NCBI RefSeq assembly: GCF_003334305.1
Contig: NZ_QOWS01000008.1
Direction: 5' to 3' (one strand)
DNA length: 64,000 nucleotides
Source: Escherichia coli
GTDB taxonomy: Bacteria; Pseudomonadota; Gammaproteobacteria; Enterobacterales; Enterobacteriaceae
Shown here piece by piece: positions 8,145 to 52,353 of the stretch. The notes under the pieces were generated by a model that was not told the origin of the DNA, made no database searches, and was given only the letters and a program-made list of their open reading frames with translations. Numbering within the stretch: position 1 is the stretch's first letter; each line of letters starts with the position of its first letter. A program made the position numbers and the translations under genes.

Positions 8145-9023
8145 ATGAGTAAAAAGCAGAGTTCCACCCCACATGATGCGCTGTTCAAACTCTTTTTACG
8201 CCAACCGGACACGGCTCGCGATTTTCTTGCGTTCCATTTACCGGCCCCCATTCACGCGCTCTGTGATATGAAAACCCTCAAGCTGGAGTCGAGCAGCTTT
8301 ATTGATGACGATCTGCGTGAAAGCTATTCCGATGTGCTGTGGTCGGTGAAAACGGAACAAGGACCAGGATACATCTATTGTCTGATTGAACATCAAAGCA
8401 CCTCAAACAAACTGATCGCATTTCGCATGATGCGTTAAGCTATTGCCGCAATGCAAAATCACCTTGATGCTGGATACAAAACGTTGCCGATGGTGGTGCT
8501 ATTGTTGTTTTACCACGGTATTGAAAGCCCCTATCCCTATTCGCTGTGTTGGCTGGATTGTTTCGCCGATCCCAAACTGGCAAGGCAGCTTTATGCCTCC
8601 GCATTTCCGCTGATTGATGTCACCGTCATGCCTGATGATGAAATCATGCAGCACCGACGTATGGCGCTGCTGGAGTTAATTCAAAAACATATTCGTCAAC
8701 GCGACCTGATGGGGCTGGTAGAGCAAATGGCCTGCTTATTAAGTAGTGGATACGCTAATGACAGACAAATCAAAGGGCTGTTTAATTACATACTGCAAAC
8801 CGGCGACGCGGTACGTTTTAACGATTTTATCGACGGCGTTGCCGAACGTTCACCGAAACACAAGGAGAGTTTAATGACAATTGCGGAAAGATTGCGGCAG
8901 GAGGGGGAACAATCCAAAGCCCTGCATATAGCCAAAATAATGCTTGAATCCGGAGTCCCTCTTACAGACATCATGCGCTTTACCGGGGTGTCAGAAGAAG
9001 AGTTGGCTGCGGCGAGCCAGTAA
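8145..9023 (+). pseudogene. rpnA: rpnA/yhgA (recombination-promoting nuclease, PDDEXK/transposase_31 family) split by an in-frame TAA at 8436-8438
   Basis: Track ORFs 8145..8438 (97 aa, [17 protein letters not shown]...FRMMR*) and 8451..9023 (190 aa) are in the same frame, separated only by TAA and four sense codons (AIAA). Read through, they total 292 codons, which is the length I recall for intact YhgA. Confidence 0.75.
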
Positions 9024-9051
9024 ATTTCTGTCTCGCCATTTCAAAAGTTGC

Positions 9052-10543
<1,492 letters not shown>

Positions 10544-23180: not shown

Positions 23181-24779
23181 ATGCGTAAAACAGTGGCTTT
23201 TGGCTTTGTCGGTACCGTGCTGGATTATGCCGGACGCGGCAGTCAGCGCTGGTCGAAATGGCGTCCGACGCTTTGTTTATGCCAGCAAGAATCGTTAGTC
23301 ATCGATCGGCTGGAATTGTTGCACGACACCCGCTCGCGCTCGCTATTCGAAACGCTTAAACGCGATATCGCCAGCGTTTCGCCAGAAACAGAAGTCGTGG
23401 GCGTTGAGATTGAACTGCATAACCCGTGGGATTTCGAAGAGGTTTACGCCTGCCTGCATGATTTCGCCCGTGGTTACGAGTTTCAGCCAGAAAAAGAAGA
23501 CTATTTAATTCACATCACCACCGGCACCCACGTCGCGCAGATTTGCTGGTTTCTGCTGGCGGAAGCGCGTTACCTGCCCGCCCGGCTGATACAATCTTCA
23601 CCTCCGCGCAAAAAAGAACAGCCGCGCGGCGCAGGTGAAGTGACGATTATCGATCTCGATTTAAGCCGTTATAACGCCATCGCCAGCCGCTTTGCCGAGG
23701 AACGCCAGCAAACGCTTGATTTTCTTAAGTCCGGCATTGCCACGCGTAACCCCCACTTCAACCGCATGATTGAGCAGATCGAAAAAGTGGCGATCAAATC
23801 CCGCGCGCCGATTCTGCTTAACGGTCCAACCGGCGCGGGCAAGTCATTTCTGGCGCGACGCATCTTCGAGTTAAAACAGGCGCGGCATCAGTTTAGCGGC
23901 GCGTTTGTGGAAGTGAACTGCGCCACCCTGCGCGGCGATACCGCCATGTCGACGCTGTTTGGTCATGTAAAAGGCGCGTTTACCGGGGCGCGGGAATCTC
24001 GTGAAGGTTTATTACGCAGCGCCAACGGCGGAATGTTGTTTCTTGATGAGATTGGCGAACTGGGCGCAGACGAACAAGCAATGCTGCTAAAAGCCATTGA
24101 AGAGAAAACCTTTTACCCGTTTGGCAGCGATCGCCAGGTGAGCAGTGATTTTCAGCTTATCGCCGGAACGGTGCGCGATTTGCGCCAGCTGGTTGCCGAA
24201 GGCAAATTTCGCGAAGATCTGTACGCGCGGATCAATCTCTGGACCTTCACCCTGCCGGGTCTACGCCAGCGCCAGGAAGATATTGAACCGAACCTTGATT
24301 ATGAAGTGGAGCGCCACGCCACACTCACTGGCGACAGCGTGCGTTTTAACACCGAAGCGCGGCGCGCCTGGTTGGCTTTTGCGACCTCTCCCCAGGCAAC
24401 ATGGCGCGGTAACTTTCGCGAACTTTCTGCCAGCGTCACGCGGATGGCCACCTTTGCCACTAGCGGACGCATCACTCTGGACGTGGTTGAAGATGAGATA
24501 AACCGTCTGCGCTATAACTGGCAGGAGAGCCGCCCCTCCGCGCTTACGGCGTTGCTGGGCACAGAGGCAGAAAACATCGACCTTTTTGACAGGCTGCAAC
24601 TGGAACACGTGATAGCTCTCTGTCGCCAGGCAAAGTCGCTTTCCGCTGCCGGACGCCTGCTTTTTGATGTTTCGCGCCAGGGCAAAGCCAGCGTCAATGA
24701 CGCGGATCGGCTACGCAAATACCTGGCGCGTTTTGGTCTGACGTGGGAAGCCGTGCAGGATCAGCACAGCTCCAGTTGA
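23181..24779 (+). CDS. rtcR: sigma54-dependent activator RtcR (532 aa), N-terminal CARF-like domain plus AAA+ domain
   Basis: 532-aa [23 protein letters not shown]... with an AAA+ sigma54-interaction domain ([24 protein letters not shown]). Divergent from rtcBA. Confidence 0.93.
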
Positions 24780-25519
24780 ATATGATGGTCCGTCAGCACC
24801 TGCATTACGCTTACTGGCGGCGGGGCGTCGGTGTAGACGGCATCTACCATGCTGATGCTGCCCATATTGACCATCGCGTTACGGCCAAATTTCGAGTGAT
24901 CGACAACCAGCATAACGTGGCGCGAGTTCTCAATAATGGCGCGCTTGGTGCGAACTTCGTGGTAATCGAACTCCAGCAACGAGCCGTCGCTATCGATGCC
25001 GCTTATCCCCAGAATGCCGAAATCAAGGCGGAACTGGGAGATAAAATCGAGCGTCGCTTCGCCAATGATCCCGCCATCGCGGCTGCGTAATTCGCCACCG
25101 GCGAGAATAATGCGGAAATCTTCTTTTACCATCAACGTGTTAGCAACATTGAGATTGTTGGTGACAATACGCAAATTGCTGTGATTAAGCAGCGCGTGCG
25201 CCACCGCTTCCGGCGTGGTGCCGATATCGATAAACAGTGTCGAGCCGTTGGGGATTTGCTCCGCCACTTTGCGGGCAATCCTCTCTTTTTCTTCGGTCTG
25301 GGTGGCTTTGCGATCGTGCCACGGCGTGTTAACCGAACTGGAAGGCAGCGCCGCACCGCCATGGTGACGCAGGATCAGGTTTTGCTCCGCCAGCTCATTG
25401 AGGTCGCGGCGAATAGTCTGCGGGCTGACGGAGAAATGCTCTACCAGCTCTTCAGTACTGACATAACCCTGCTGTTTAACCAGTTCGATAATACCGTTGT
25501 GACGTTGTGTTTGTTTCAT
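24761..25519 (-). CDS. glpR: DeoR-family glycerol-3-phosphate regulon repressor GlpR (252 aa)
   Basis: 252-aa ORF MKQTQRHNGIIELVKQQGYVSTEELVEHFSVSPQTIRRDL.... Its 3' end overlaps the rtcR 3' end by 19 nt (convergent). Confidence 0.93.
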   Translation of the reverse strand: MKQTQRHNGIIELVKQQGYVSTEELVEHFSVSPQTIRRDLNELAEQNLILRHHGGAALPSSSVNTPWHDRKATQTEEKERIARKVAEQIPNGSTLFIDIGTTPEAVAHALLNHSNLRIVTNNLNVANTLMVKEDFRIILAGGELRSRDGGIIGEATLDFISQFRLDFGILGISGIDSDGSLLEFDYHEVRTKRAIIENSRHVMLVVDHSKFGRNAMVNMGSISMVDAVYTDAPPPVSVMQVLTDHHIQLELC

Positions 25520-28483: not shown

Positions 28484-29089
28484 TCATTGTAAATAATTGA
28501 ATAACGGCCCCTGAGCTAAAATCGCCAAACTTAAGCACGTTACCCAATCGCCCCACTTCTTCCTCTGGTTTCTATTTTTTCTGCACCAATGGCAATAATA
28601 TCCCCATGCAAAACCAAGCTGTGCACTAATCGGGCCGACAAAATCAGTCCAAGGCTGCGGCCAAAAAGGGGAAAAATTCAGGGGAGGCCAGACAAACGTC
28701 AGAAAGAAATTTCGGATATTTTCCAGCAACGCTGATTTCTCTGGAGAAATATAAAGAATGAAATTCGAGAGAATTAACCAGAAATAGACCGGCGAAAAGA
28801 CCAGCCAGCAATGCAGTCTGTTTTTTAATTCAGGAGGCGTTCTGCGGGAGAATTGCCAACCGATGCCAGCCATTACACTGAAAAAAAGTGCATATTCAAC
28901 CATTAACTCAAGTTGTAATTCCTGAAGAGAAATACGCACAACCAGGAGCGGAAAGGAGAATATTATTTCTGCCAGAAAAGTTAACGTGAATATAAGTACG
29001 GCTAAGACAATAACCGTCGGCCATACCAATAATGGCACGATAACAAAACCGAGAATTACAGGGGGAATATAAAGCCGGAATTTAATCAT
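28484..29089 (-). CDS. Hypothetical small polytopic membrane protein (201 aa), last gene of the unknown four-gene operon
   Basis: ATG start; 201-aa ORF MIKFRLYIPPVILGFVIVPLLVWPTVIVLAVLIF... with about 4-5 hydrophobic spans and a basic C-terminal segment (WCRKNRNQRKKW). The start lies 2 nt after the stop of the upstream gene. I do not recognise a family. Confidence 0.55.
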   Translation of the reverse strand: MIKFRLYIPPVILGFVIVPLLVWPTVIVLAVLIFTLTFLAEIIFSFPLLVVRISLQELQLELMVEYALFFSVMAGIGWQFSRRTPPELKNRLHCWLVFSPVYFWLILSNFILYISPEKSALLENIRNFFLTFVWPPLNFSPFWPQPWTDFVGPISAQLGFAWGYYCHWCRKNRNQRKKWGDWVTCLSLAILAQGPLFNYLQ

Positions 29090-29091
29090 TT

Positions 29092-29859
29092 TTATTTTCC
29101 TGGTGATTCGGATGATGCGTCATACATCGCGCATAAACACTCATCAATTATCCAGTCATCTTCCCAGACCTGATATTCTGTCATTGGTTCGGGCTGTTTT
29201 AGCGGATTCTCAATCGCTTGCCGCGCTCTTTCTTTCAGTAAAGGATGATTATTTCTAGCCCAGGCATTGATTTGGGTGGTAATGACGTTATCGATATCGT
29301 CCTGGTTATCTCTGATATAATCCTCACAATATCTGTTCAATAAACAGGCAAGAGAAACGGTCGACCAAAAGCCGGGAACTGAATTAATGGCATCCAGCAA
29401 TGGCGCAAGAGCGATATCGGCACGGAAAAACATTTCCAGCATATACTGTAATTCGACAGCTTCATCGCCGGATACCCAATCAGTCATATACTGGCAGGCA
29501 AATCGCTGTAAAATTGCCCGTTCATCCGCACGCCAGTTTTCTTTACTGGCAAGGTTTATACGCCGTAGAGAAAAAACTACGTGAATATTGTCAAAATGCC
29601 CCTGTGCAACAAATTCCAGTAAACGCGGCAGAAAATAGCGGACCTCATCGCTATTTTGCGGATCAGGCCCTGGGCTACTATTCCAGGCATTGATTAAGGA
29701 ATACGGGATCGCTCGTAACGATGTACTCCGTAATGCCTTTTGTTCCTGCTGACTCAGGCAATATTCACAACAAACCACAAATTTCTGCGGCACCTGATAA
29801 CGACGAAAGGTGTGATAAATCTGCTCAATTAATGCCTGCATGGCGGGGCTGGGTTGCAT
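29092..29859 (-). CDS. Hypothetical soluble acidic protein (255 aa), third gene of the unknown operon
   Basis: ATG start; MQPSPAMQALIEQIYHTFRRYQVPQKFVVCCEYCLSQQEQ... with Cys motifs (CCEYC, DECLC). Its stop is 2 nt from the next start. No recognisable family. Confidence 0.55.
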   Translation of the reverse strand: MQPSPAMQALIEQIYHTFRRYQVPQKFVVCCEYCLSQQEQKALRSTSLRAIPYSLINAWNSSPGPDPQNSDEVRYFLPRLLEFVAQGHFDNIHVVFSLRRINLASKENWRADERAILQRFACQYMTDWVSGDEAVELQYMLEMFFRADIALAPLLDAINSVPGFWSTVSLACLLNRYCEDYIRDNQDDIDNVITTQINAWARNNHPLLKERARQAIENPLKQPEPMTEYQVWEDDWIIDECLCAMYDASSESPGK

Positions 29860-29861
29860 AG

Positions 29862-49008: not shown

Positions 49009-49103
49009 AAAAAAAAAGCCAGCACCCGGCTGGCTAAGTAATACTGGAAGCAATGTGAGCAATGTCGTGCTTTCAGGTTCTCCGCGAGGGTCTTCCTGAT
49101 CGC
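49009..49103 (-). ncRNA. ryhB: Fur-repressed small RNA RyhB
   Basis: Minus-strand sequence GCGATCAGGAAGACCCTCGCGGAGAACCTGAAAGCACGACATTGCTCACATTGCTTCCAGTATTACTTAGCCAGCCGGGTGCTGGCTTTTTTTTT matches the RyhB sequence as I recall it, including the terminator hairpin and U9 tail. Confidence 0.92.
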
Positions 49104-49949: not shown

Positions 49950-51128
49950 ATGAGTAATATTGTTTACCTGACAGTAACGGGAGAACAACAAGGAAGCATC
50001 TCCGCAGGTTGTGGGACTTCTGAGTCTACAGGTAATCGTTGGCAGAGCGGGCATGAGGATGAAATATTTACATTCTCACTCTTAAATAATATTAATAATA
50101 CGGGGCTTGGTTCACAGTTCCATGGTATAACATTTTGTAAATTAATTGATAAAAGCACTCCATTATTTATTAATTCCATTAACAATAATGAACAATTATT
50201 TATGGGATTTGACTTCTATCGAATAAATAGATTTGGTAGATGGGAAAAGTATTATTATATACAACTAAAAGGCGCTTTTTTATCGGCTATTCATCATCAG
50301 ATCATTCAAAATCAACTGGATACAGAAACAATAACTGTTAGTTATGAATTTATCCTCTGTCAACATCTTATCGCAAATACCGAGTTCAGCTATTTGGCAC
50401 TCCCTGAAAATTATAACCGTTTGTTTTTACCAAATTCAAAAAACCAAACAAATAATCGTTTCAAAACGTTAAACAGCAAAGCTATTGGCAGGCTACTTGC
50501 TGCTGGTGGCGTATACAATGGGAACATTGAAGGATTCAGAGATACTGCGGAAAAACTGGGTGGAGATGCAATAAAAGGCTATGATCAAATACTAAATGAA
50601 AAAACAGCGGGCATAGCGATAGCAACAGCATCTATTCTTTTAACAAAGCGTTCTAATGTTGATACATATACAGAAATAAATAGTTACTTAGGCAAACTTA
50701 GAGGTCAACAAAAACTTCTTGATGGTATAGACATAATAGAAATAATATACATTAAGAGACCTTCAAAAGACTTAGCTAACTTACGAAAGGAGTTTAATAA
50801 AACTGTAAGAAAAAATTTTCTTATCAAACTTGCAAAAACCTCCGAAGCATCTGGAAGATTCAACGCCGAAGACCTTTTAAGAATGAGAAAGGGCAATGTT
50901 CCTCTAAATTATAATGTTCACCATAAACTATCTCTAGATGATGGTGGTACTAATGATTTCGAAAATTTAGTATTAATCGAAAACGAACCATATCATAAAG
51001 TTTTTACTAACATGCAATCACGAATAGCTAAGGGAATATTAGTAGGTGAAAGCAAAATCACTCCCTGGGCCATTCCATCTGGCTCAATTTATCCTCCCAT
51101 GAAAAATATTATGGACCACACAAAATGA
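49950..51128 (+). CDS. yhhZ: YhhZ-like polymorphic toxin (392 aa): N-terminal Hcp-like domain fused to a C-terminal HNH (beta-beta-alpha-metal) nuclease domain
   Basis: The N-terminus (MSNIVYLTVTGEQQGSISAGCGTS...) resembles Hcp/TssD. The C-terminus carries NYNVHHKLSLDDGGTNDFENLVLIENEPYHKVF (HH...N...H). Local sequence is strongly AT-rich compared with the flanking genes. Confidence 0.8.
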   Translation: MSNIVYLTVTGEQQGSISAGCGTSESTGNRWQSGHEDEIFTFSLLNNINNTGLGSQFHGITFCKLIDKSTPLFINSINNNEQLFMGFDFYRINRFGRWEKYYYIQLKGAFLSAIHHQIIQNQLDTETITVSYEFILCQHLIANTEFSYLALPENYNRLFLPNSKNQTNNRFKTLNSKAIGRLLAAGGVYNGNIEGFRDTAEKLGGDAIKGYDQILNEKTAGIAIATASILLTKRSNVDTYTEINSYLGKLRGQQKLLDGIDIIEIIYIKRPSKDLANLRKEFNKTVRKNFLIKLAKTSEASGRFNAEDLLRMRKGNVPLNYNVHHKLSLDDGGTNDFENLVLIENEPYHKVFTNMQSRIAKGILVGESKITPWAIPSGSIYPPMKNIMDHTK

Positions 51129-51619
51129 TGACTAAAACCCAAATAAATAAATTAATAAAAATGATGAATGATTTAGACTATCCATTTGAAGCACCGCTCA
51201 AGGAATCATTTATTGAAAGTATAATCCAAATAGAATTTAATTCTAATTCAACTAATTGCCTGGAGAAGTTATGTAATGAAGTTAGTATTCTTTTTAAGAA
51301 TCAACCTGATTATCTTACTTTTTTAAGAGCAATGGATGGATTCGAAGTTAATGGATTACGATTATTTAGCCTCTCGATTCCAGAACCTTCAGTTAAAAAC
51401 CTTTTTGCCGTAAATGAATTTTATAGAAATAATGATGATTTCATAAACCCTGATCTACAAGAACGGTTAGTGATCGGGGATGATAGCATTTCAATATTTA
51501 CTTATGACATTAAAAGTAACTTTTTTGAAATTAGAGATAATATTGGCACAGAAAATATATTCAGTTCGTTTAGTGATTTCTCTTCATTCTTAAACGAAAT
51601 CATGGACAGTTGTTCATAA
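51125..51619 (+). CDS. yrhA: YrhA-like putative immunity protein (164 aa), translationally coupled to yhhZ
   Basis: The ATG overlaps the yhhZ TGA (ATGA). Acidic 164-aa product MMTKTQINKLIKMMNDLDYPFEAPLKESFIES..., AT-rich. No IS1 sequence interrupts it. Confidence 0.65.
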   Translation: MMTKTQINKLIKMMNDLDYPFEAPLKESFIESIIQIEFNSNSTNCLEKLCNEVSILFKNQPDYLTFLRAMDGFEVNGLRLFSLSIPEPSVKNLFAVNEFYRNNDDFINPDLQERLVIGDDSISIFTYDIKSNFFEIRDNIGTENIFSSFSDFSSFLNEIMDSCS

Positions 51620-51713
51620 TAATCAAAAGGAAACAAAAATCATTGTAAACCATGCCATCTTTTTAGAGATTACCAGCAGAAAATTCCTTGTTCGAAATTT
51701 AGCAGTGCAAGCT

Positions 51714-51869
51714 ATGGAAAAACTTACAACGGAACTACACTCCTTAAGTGAGATGGACCGAAGACATGTAGTCTCTATTTTAGCCGAAATAGCTAATGGC
51801 TATGATGATTTTAATGACATGTTGATTTATTTAGAATTTTACCCGAATCATAAGATTCTGATATCTTAA
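51714..51869 (+). CDS. Small ORF (51 aa) in the AT-rich spacer, possible orphan immunity-gene remnant
   Basis: ATG...TAA frame encoding MEKLTTELHSLSEMDRRHVVSILAEIANGYDDFNDMLIYLEFYPNHKILIS. Below the 60-aa track cutoff, no clear Shine-Dalgarno. Confidence 0.2.
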   Translation: MEKLTTELHSLSEMDRRHVVSILAEIANGYDDFNDMLIYLEFYPNHKILIS

Positions 51870-52068
51870 ATAAGAAAATCCCGTTCGACGTTCTGAAAAA
51901 GAAATCATAAAATATTAGCAGATACTTATTTCGTGACTATATCTTATCCGATGAACTTTTTTCAAAACCAGCATTTAATAATATCTTTGACGAAGATGAA
52001 CGCGTCTTTGCTCAATGTATCACACAGGAATAATAATATAACACTCAACAATAATATTTATTATAATT

Positions 52069-52353
52069 ATGATTACTTATCACGACGCATTCGCGAAAGC
52101 GAACCATTACCTTGATGATGCAGATCTCCCGGTCGTCATTACTCTACATGGACGCTTTAGCCAGGGCTGGTATTTCTGTTTCGAAGCACGAGAATTTCTC
52201 GAAACTGGAGATGAGGCCGCGCGCTTAGCTGGTAACGCACCTTTTATTATTGATAAAGACAGTGGTGAAATTCATTCTCTGGGAACGGCAAAGCCGCTGG
52301 AAGAATATCTACAGGATTACGAAATAAAAAAGGCTACCTTCGGCTTGCCCTGA
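52069..52353 (+). CDS. yrhB: YrhB-like small protein (94 aa), putative immunity-type protein
   Basis: 94-aa ORF MITYHDAFAKANHYLDDADLPVVITLHGRFSQGWYFCFEAREFLETGDEAARLAGNAPFIIDKDSGEIHSL.... Confidence 0.8.
   Translation: MITYHDAFAKANHYLDDADLPVVITLHGRFSQGWYFCFEAREFLETGDEAARLAGNAPFIIDKDSGEIHSLGTAKPLEEYLQDYEIKKATFGLP

Follow-up and report, generated by a model that had tools for sequence, protein, structure and literature searches.

Convergent 3'-end overlaps of rtcR/glpR and yhhA/ugpQ in Escherichia coli and the probable ends of their transcripts

Convergent gene overlaps and transcript ends in E. coli

Convergent overlapping gene pairs are a well-described class of gene arrangement in which two genes on opposite strands share a few to tens of nucleotides at their 3' ends, in which displacement of a stop codon creates the overlap and in which its length depends on the relative considered (PairWise Neighbours database, PMC2716372; Huvet and Stumpf, 2014, PMC4161906). 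For E. coli, 663 of 4131 adjacent gene pairs were reported to overlap, 75 of them convergently, and gene overlaps were described as volatile structures whose lengths differ among close relatives (Huvet and Stumpf, 2014, PMC4161906). The ends of convergent transcripts were addressed from several sides. Bidirectional terminators serve both members of a convergent pair (Ju et al., 2019, as presented in bioRxiv 10.1101/2022.10.23.513370). Rho-dependent termination of untranslated or antisense RNA past stop codons was mapped with the inhibitor bicyclomycin, and regions antisense to genes form the largest class there (51.5%) (Adams et al., 2021, PMC7815308, in whose text Peters et al., 2012 is cited). 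Moreover, 165 convergent pairs of strain MG1655 were found to have transcripts that overlap in at least 50% of 58 transcriptomes, and for 146 of these 165 E. coli excludon pairs overlapping terminators, located in the unit of the neighbor, were predicted (ExcludonFinder, PMC12288877).

Here, we analyze two convergent overlaps, rtcR/glpR and yhhA/ugpQ, in a stretch of 64,000 nucleotides of E. coli DNA, referred to as the window. Both pairs lie on opposite strands, share their coding 3' ends and encode real and conserved products; they would count among the 75 convergent overlaps of E. coli, from which they show no substantive difference. The overlaps themselves are already known, being present in the K-12 reference annotation, and the class to which they belong is well described. 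We consider it rather probable, at roughly 0.75, that both are commonplace tail-to-tail overlaps between closely spaced genes, which arose from drift of stop codons and not from selection for regulation, and that transcription from each side ends inside the partner gene.

Position, conservation and origin of the two overlaps

The six-frame list of open reading frames (ORFs) and the raw sequence place rtcR, encoding the sigma-54-dependent activator of rtcBA, at 23181..24779 on the plus strand with its TGA stop codon at 24777-24779. The convergent glpR gene, the last gene of glpEGR, encodes the DeoR-family glycerol-3-phosphate repressor and lies at 24761..25519 on the minus strand with a TGA stop codon read from 24763 to 24761; it is intact in the window and encodes 252 amino acids. 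Likewise, yhhA was located at 54253..54693 on the plus strand (TAA at 54691-54693) and ugpQ, the glycerophosphodiester phosphodiesterase gene that closes the ugpBAECQ operon, at 54680..55423 on the minus strand (TAG read from 54682 to 54680). YhhA is a low-complexity protein of unknown function with a signal peptide and Q-rich repeats, and its length varies between strains. The ORFs, the raw sequence and the RefSeq annotation agree that the 3' ends of rtcR and glpR have 19 nt in common (24761-24779) and those of yhhA and ugpQ 14 nt (54680-54693), just as the initial annotation had reported, and the four gene names given there are correct. The two overlaps differ in phase: the 19-nt overlap aligns the wobble positions, so that the third codon positions of both frames coincide, whereas in the 14-nt overlap a third codon position of either frame lies opposite a second position of the other.

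The same gene ends recur far beyond this strain. The window is identical to positions 4440634-4504633 of E. coli strain A7 (NZ_CP028767.1; 100% identity, 0 mismatches in 64000 nt), for which the RefSeq/PGAP annotation gives exactly the same four ends. The K-12 MG1655 reference carries the same 19-nt overlap (rtcR 3558268..3559866, glpR 3559848..3560605) and the same 14-nt overlap (yhhA 3586943..3587383, ugpQ 3587370..3588113). Searched with junction segments of 80 nt and 171 nt, each junction was recovered in at least 5423 of 5426 complete E. coli genomes. It could be argued that the overlaps are annotation artefacts produced by a wrong stop codon, a non-coding ORF or a sequencing error, since the YhhA product is of low complexity, Q-rich and of strain-variable length and since glpR is a pseudogene in MG1655. 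This explanation is effectively refuted: the stop codons were taken directly from the sequence, the same ends are found in nearly every genome searched, glpR is intact in the window, YhhA matches Pfam DUF2756 across hundreds of homologues, and YhhA and GlpR keep their C-terminal peptides from genus to genus, also in taxa in which the genes do not overlap. Because 3' overlaps are set by stop codons alone, miscalled start codons are irrelevant, and the conservation across genera of the C-termini that define both junctions implies that genes and stops are real; mis-called stops are thereby ruled out. In homologue scans, RtcR and UgpQ orthologues were also recovered at full length.

Comparison between genera suggests how the rtcR/glpR overlap came about. 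A scan for RtcR with one genome per species yielded 21 loci, and glpR was found convergent to and abutting rtcR in all Escherichia species, in Klebsiella oxytoca, in Intestinirhabdus and in Superficieibacter. The overlap measures 19 nt in the Escherichia species and in K. oxytoca, 35 nt in Intestinirhabdus and 4 nt in Superficieibacter, and all four genera have the same GlpR C-terminus, QLELC followed by the stop. The final six residues of RtcR, DQHSSS, fall together with the stop codon inside the 19-nt overlap. The RtcR proteins of Pseudomonas, Iodobacter, Accumulibacter and the Desulfo- lineages stop 2-9 residues past a conserved W-E-x-V motif; their tails are unrelated, and the neighboring genes differ. 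As the GlpR end is invariant and the RtcR tails are unrelated, the DQHSSS end of RtcR is therefore best read as a passenger tail that reads the complement of glpR. Across genera, only positions 24770 and 24776 vary within the 19-nt overlap; these are shared wobble positions, and the changes are synonymous in both the rtcR and the glpR frame. About 11% of the complete genomes of E. coli lack the 5' part of rtcR (about half of the gene) and still contain the rtcR/glpR junction.

A similar picture emerges for yhhA/ugpQ, for which YhhA homologues were placed on contigs of twelve other taxa and the gene order ggt-yhhA-ugpQ is kept. The distance between the two stops is -14 in E. coli, E. albertii, Dryocola and a JGI-metagenome contig (L041), -4 in Salmonella, Yokenella, Enterobacter sp. 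SA187, Phytobacter and Enterobacteriaceae bacterium 89, and -17 in Citrobacter tructae; it amounts to +7 in assembly GCA_023451865.1, +91 in Buttiauxella and +142 in a second JGI-metagenome contig (L037), and the latter two spacers contain hairpins of their own. The YhhA C-terminus, IPLKT-I/V-G/T/S-P followed by the stop, is conserved and its stop fixed, including in Buttiauxella, which has no overlap. The final 2-4 residues of UgpQ differ between genera (TAQ, QF, QP, NSAD, TG). Judging by these sequences, the drifting stop at this junction is that of UgpQ. Taken together, the most likely mechanism would be that one protein end is constrained in each pair (QLELC of GlpR and, in the window, IPLKTIGP of YhhA) and that the partner gene reads along the complementary strand up to the next stop codon, thereby probably acquiring a short non-conserved passenger tail, i.e., DQHSSS in RtcR and the last 2-4 residues in UgpQ.

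The number of overlaps in the window is unremarkable. Convergent junctions make up 8 of 55 adjacent gene pairs (14.5%). Scaling this share to the 4131 adjacent pairs of E. coli gives an estimated 600 or so convergent pairs genome-wide, of which about 1 in 8 would overlap, and by our own binomial estimate the probability of finding at least two overlapping pairs among eight convergent junctions is about 0.26. Two overlaps in the window are no more than expected by chance. The other six junctions are separated by spacers of +28 (rpnA/bioH), +44 (gntT/malQ), +42 (malT/rtcA), +51 (glpD/hypothetical gene), +56 (yhgN/gntU) and +37 nt (yrhB/ggt), compared with -19 for rtcR/glpR and -14 for yhhA/ugpQ.

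Probable transcript ends inside the partner genes

At each of the six non-overlapping junctions, a GC-rich hairpin that is usable in both directions lies in the 28-56 nt spacer, and these junctions fit the bidirectional terminators of Ju et al. (2019), as presented in the preprint named above. The two overlapping junctions would have to accomplish the same task differently, namely with two separate candidate hairpins in the partner coding sequences at yhhA/ugpQ and without any U-tract hairpin at rtcR/glpR. A shared bidirectional hairpin was found at neither of them in our scans, and no intergenic DNA is present. Without a spacer, transcription should therefore end inside the partner gene and not at an intergenic terminator. 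The initial annotation had concluded from the missing spacer that the overlaps leave no room for terminators. This does not hold, as terminators need not be intergenic: the candidates at yhhA/ugpQ and a Rho region past glpR all lie inside the partner gene.

For the glpR side, published data are available. In MG1655, a Rho termination region was mapped at position 3559514 on the minus strand, antisense to rtcR, where the ratio of downstream to upstream reads rose from 29/154 in untreated cells to 256/153 with bicyclomycin (Rho score 8.9, p 2.7e-27) (Adams et al., 2021, PMC7815308, supplementary file 2). Converted to the window, this region lies at 24427, i.e., 334 nt past the glpR stop, and transcription past glpR thus covers the stretch 24427..24760 on the minus strand, antisense to rtcR, as far as the mapped Rho region. 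It belongs to the antisense class, the largest in that study, but the strain used there has a frameshift in glpR. In this glpR pseudogene of MG1655, one nucleotide is deleted at gene position 151 and the frame ends prematurely near codon 105; the roughly 450 nt between this stop and the normal one are therefore untranslated and visible to Rho. In the window strain with its intact glpR, the site and the strength of Rho action may differ. The preferred reading would thus have the glpEGR transcript halted by Rho a few hundred nucleotides into rtcR antisense, as shown in MG1655, and the rtcR transcript probably ended by Rho within glpR antisense. Within the published MG1655 data, increased read-through with bicyclomycin is seen on the glpR side only, and the tables list no Rho region for the other three ends. 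Past none of the four stops did composition scans with a sliding window of 78 nt reveal a clear rut signature rich in C and poor in G; bubbles of C over G were not clear after the glpR or rtcR stops and modest after the yhhA stop.

No hairpin followed by a U-tract was found when the rtcR/glpR junction was scanned on both strands. A stable hairpin, CGCGCCAGG...CCUGGCGCG, is located at 24673..24730 on the minus strand, 31-88 nt past the glpR stop (-39.7 kcal/mol, z -3.9). It was considered as a conserved terminator of glpR and rejected, as it comes without a U-tract, is absent in Klebsiella and Intestinirhabdus and is present in Pseudomonas, where rtcR has no adjoining glpR. We judge it to be incidental to the rtcR codons for SRQ/YLAR; at most it could serve as a stop for 3' exonucleases.

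At yhhA/ugpQ, a GC-rich hairpin with a U-rich tail follows soon after each stop. The candidate intrinsic terminator of yhhA lies at 54741..54779 on the plus strand, inside the ugpQ coding sequence and 48-86 nt past the yhhA stop, and has the form CCCCAGCGC-loop-GCGCUGGGG, then UUUAUUGA (-24 kcal/mol, z -3.0). The candidate for the ugp operon lies at 54620..54658 on the minus strand, inside the yhhA coding sequence and 22-60 nt past the ugpQ stop; it consists of a hairpin of 12-13 bp, GCGGCGUGCUGG-loop-CAGCAUGUCGC, then CGUUUCUCCU (-22.1 kcal/mol, z -2.8). A strict scan (8 or more consecutive pairs, 5 or more G-C pairs, loop length 3-16 nt, and 5 or more T in 8) returned just 12 matches on the two strands of the window, which together make up 128 kb (0.094 per kb per strand). 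Most of these sites are located at known gene ends and two are the yhhA and ugp candidates; the probability that both would fall within 100 nt of the relevant stops by chance is about 1e-4. The yhhA and ugp transcripts would thus probably end at these hairpins with U-tracts in the coding sequence of the partner.

Whether the candidates were selected as RNA elements is a separate matter. The stem arms of the yhhA candidate correspond to the UgpQ codons for PQR and RWG, which are conserved in 13 of 13 taxa including those with a spacer, and its U-tract (codons for VNK) is missing in 3 of the 10 overlapping taxa. The stem is kept even where a spacer is present and hence results mostly from the coding of UgpQ. 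Covariation was considered as support for this candidate and set aside, since all 13 taxa have unchanged protein codons in the stem arms and RNA conservation independent of the protein is not claimable. The hairpin of the ugp candidate derives from the near-palindromic coding of the repeated MLNQ motif of YhhA. Both are plausible terminators made from coding sequence and not demonstrably selected RNA elements. The Term-seq tables of Adams et al. for LB and M63, conditions under which ugp is repressed, contain no 3' end at MG1655 positions 35870xx-35875xx, and a coordinate search of these tables at the ends of rtcR, yhhA and ugpQ returned neither a Rho region nor a 3' end. The SMRT-Cappable-seq supplements hold no entry for rtcR, glpR, yhhA or ugpQ.

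Termination could alternatively be brought about by the polymerases themselves. In a model from the Liu laboratory, put forward for hundreds of convergent pairs in E. coli, head-on collisions of converging polymerases, positioned by a nascent stem-loop, end transcription instead of an intrinsic terminator or Rho. The stem-loop that this model requires is at hand at yhhA/ugpQ, where both strands can fold into stable hairpins no more than 80 nt from the stops. Against it stands the fact that both units must be active simultaneously, and rtcR is weakly expressed, as is ugp in phosphate-replete media. Moreover, the end on the glpR side responds to bicyclomycin and is hence Rho-dependent. We regard collision as a very improbable account of these two junctions and prefer termination by Rho or by embedded hairpins inside the partner gene. 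Bacteria routinely terminate transcription in a neighboring gene, either by Rho acting on untranslated antisense RNA or by hairpins in the codons of the partner, and the lesson for the scanning of genomes is that absent intergenic space must not be equated with absent termination.

Overlapping transcripts and antisense interference

When both genes of an overlapping pair are transcribed up to their stops, the 3' ends of the mRNAs are necessarily complementary. Complementarity of about 160 nt is predicted for yhhA/ugpQ if the candidate terminators are used, and at least 330 nt would be expected from the glpR side. The initial annotation had derived transcriptional read-through and antisense interference from the overlaps. 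Read-through is borne out on the glpR side by the Rho region 334 nt past the stop and for yhhA-ugpQ by its presence among the 165 convergent pairs of the ExcludonFinder list (PMC12288877). As a property specific to overlaps it is not sustained: in the same bicyclomycin data set a Rho region is found antisense to gntT (PMC7815308), and rpnA-bioH, which lies in the window with a 28-nt spacer, is also on the excludon list (PMC12288877), so that read-through is not specific to overlapping genes. The gntT/malQ spacer contains a strong hairpin despite the Rho region antisense to gntT. By these published data, transcription runs into the partner at yhhA-ugpQ and on the glpR side, and antisense interference at both pairs is hypothetical.

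A stronger version of the interference claim would be that the pairs are functional convergent excludons, in which read-through represses the partner by polymerase collision or by cleavage of the RNA duplex by RNase III, such that yhhA and ugpBAECQ, and likewise rtcR and glpEGR, are expressed exclusively of each other. The listing of yhhA-ugpQ and the lower single-cell co-expression and higher synteny reported for excludon pairs as a class (PMC12288877) point in this direction, and the candidate terminators of yhhA and ugp in the unit of the neighbor correspond to the overlapping terminators of those authors. Furthermore, transcription of glpEGR runs at least 334 nt antisense into rtcR, and the ggt-yhhA-ugpQ and rtcR-glpR arrangements are retained in several enterobacterial genera. 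However, rtcR-glpR is absent from the list of convergent pairs (PMC12288877), and yhhA and ugpQ/C/E were induced together at entry into stationary phase in bulk microarray data of E. coli O157 Sakai (PMC2241611), a joint induction that speaks against strong mutual exclusion. The variable length of the overlaps, with the two taxa that have 91- and 142-nt spacers and hairpins of their own, argues against this explanation as well, as do the roughly 11% of E. coli genomes that keep the junction without a working rtcR. In addition, capture of double-stranded RNA with p19 could not validate convergent excludons in published work. In view of this, functional excludons are an unlikely explanation.

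The presence of the junctions in nearly all E. coli genomes, together with the higher synteny of excludons, is also compatible with some selected function. This could be a conditional switch that acts via read-through of glpEGR into rtcR or via the predicted complementarity of about 160 nt between yhhA and ugp, with the hairpins maintained for this purpose, for which we see little prospect. If it existed, transcription of the glycerol regulon could, e.g., damp RtcR, the activator of RNA repair; alternatively, sigma-S-driven transcription of yhhA could adjust how stable the Pho-regulated ugp mRNA is at its 3' end. A dedicated role of the excludon type is possible, unsupported and, in our assessment, improbable for these two pairs. 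If either pair did act as a regulatory excludon, a known mechanism would gain a further example, and in the case of yhhA-ugpQ there would be a first functional hint for yhhA. Under the preferred reading of ordinary overlaps, complementary 3' ends would represent the common situation of convergent E. coli genes, and interference would be a weak side effect for which no dedicated mechanism need be assumed.

Two further observations concern the window as a whole. At the Rfam gathering threshold, only RyhB (49010-49074) was detected, with no known RNA element at the overlap junctions. A block of four genes at 28484-32096 has no NCBIfam match at the curated cut-off and no PADLOC match; its best NCBIfam match is a sub-threshold similarity of a 502-amino-acid protein to the PstS family (122.7 bits at a cut-off of 206.6).

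Hairpins, an internal RNA 3' end and sigma factor sites around yhhA

The Q-rich, repeat-containing protein YhhA (DUF2756) varies in length from 96 to 167 aa across Escherichia coli entries. The near-palindrome TGCTGAATCAGCA encodes the MLNQ motif that recurs in it, and because of this the gene contains hairpins on both strands, such as those at window 54410-54422 and 54629-54658. Published Term-seq data place an RNA 3' end inside yhhA at MG1655 position 3586994, which corresponds to window 54304 (+) and lies 51 nt downstream of the start codon. Directly upstream of this 3' end, the signal-peptide codons form the hairpin ACGGCA-CUCC-UGCCGU followed by UUGU. The same data class the 3' end as not Rho-dependent (Rho score 0.65) and assign it an intrinsic terminator score of 2.5; premature termination or a short RNA may account for it. 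Genomic SELEX has mapped an RpoS holoenzyme site to the divergent spacer of ggt and yhhA (window 54160-54253), as well as an RpoF (sigma-28) peak within ugpQ (PMC5493296). This RpoF peak is a possible sign of an internal or antisense promoter close to the yhhA/ugpQ overlap.

rtcR and glpR at the convergent junction

Of 5426 complete E. coli genomes, only 4798 have the 5' half of rtcR (window 23181-24779), whereas 5423 contain the rtcR/glpR junction. ST131 is among the lineages carrying a deletion that joins fragments of rtcA and rtcR, leaving an rtcR 3' stub which still overlaps glpR. In the window strain glpR (window 24761-25519) is full-length and encodes 252 aa; in the K-12 reference MG1655 it is a pseudogene because a single nucleotide is deleted at position 151 of the gene, and this frameshift background underlies the published MG1655 transcript data at the glpR locus.

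Further convergent pairs and accessory genes of the window

The convergent genes rpnA and bioH (window 8145-9822), which are separated by a 28-nt spacer, are also on the published MG1655 excludon list (ExcludonFinder, PMC12288877); rpnA is a pseudogene with an internal stop in the window strain. According to published bicyclomycin data, gntT has a Rho termination region on its antisense strand, at MG1655 3547196 and with a Rho score of 3.4 (Adams et al., 2021; PMC7815308), which suggests that malPQ transcription passes through the strong hairpin of the gntT/malQ spacer. This region maps approximately to window 12100 (-), within gntT.

While the interval between glpD and glgP contains only a small yzgL remnant in MG1655, it holds a four-gene block on the minus strand in the window (28484-32096), encoding hypothetical proteins of 201, 255 and 236 aa and a 502-aa PstS-family protein. 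The block gave no match at the curated cut-offs of NCBIfam, the PstS-family match of the 502-aa protein being sub-threshold (122.7 bits against a cut-off of 206.6), and zero hits in PADLOC. The sRNA RyhB (Rfam, 83 bits) is located between yhhX and yhhY at window 49010-49074 (-); it is annotated in MG1655 and missing from the feature table of the strain A7 record. The genes tssD/yhhZ, yrhA, yrhD and yrhB occupy window 49950-52353. Here, yrhA is intact, whereas it is split by IS1E in MG1655, and the annotation of the upstream gene, named yhhZ in K-12, is that of a type VI effector of the Hcp1 family.
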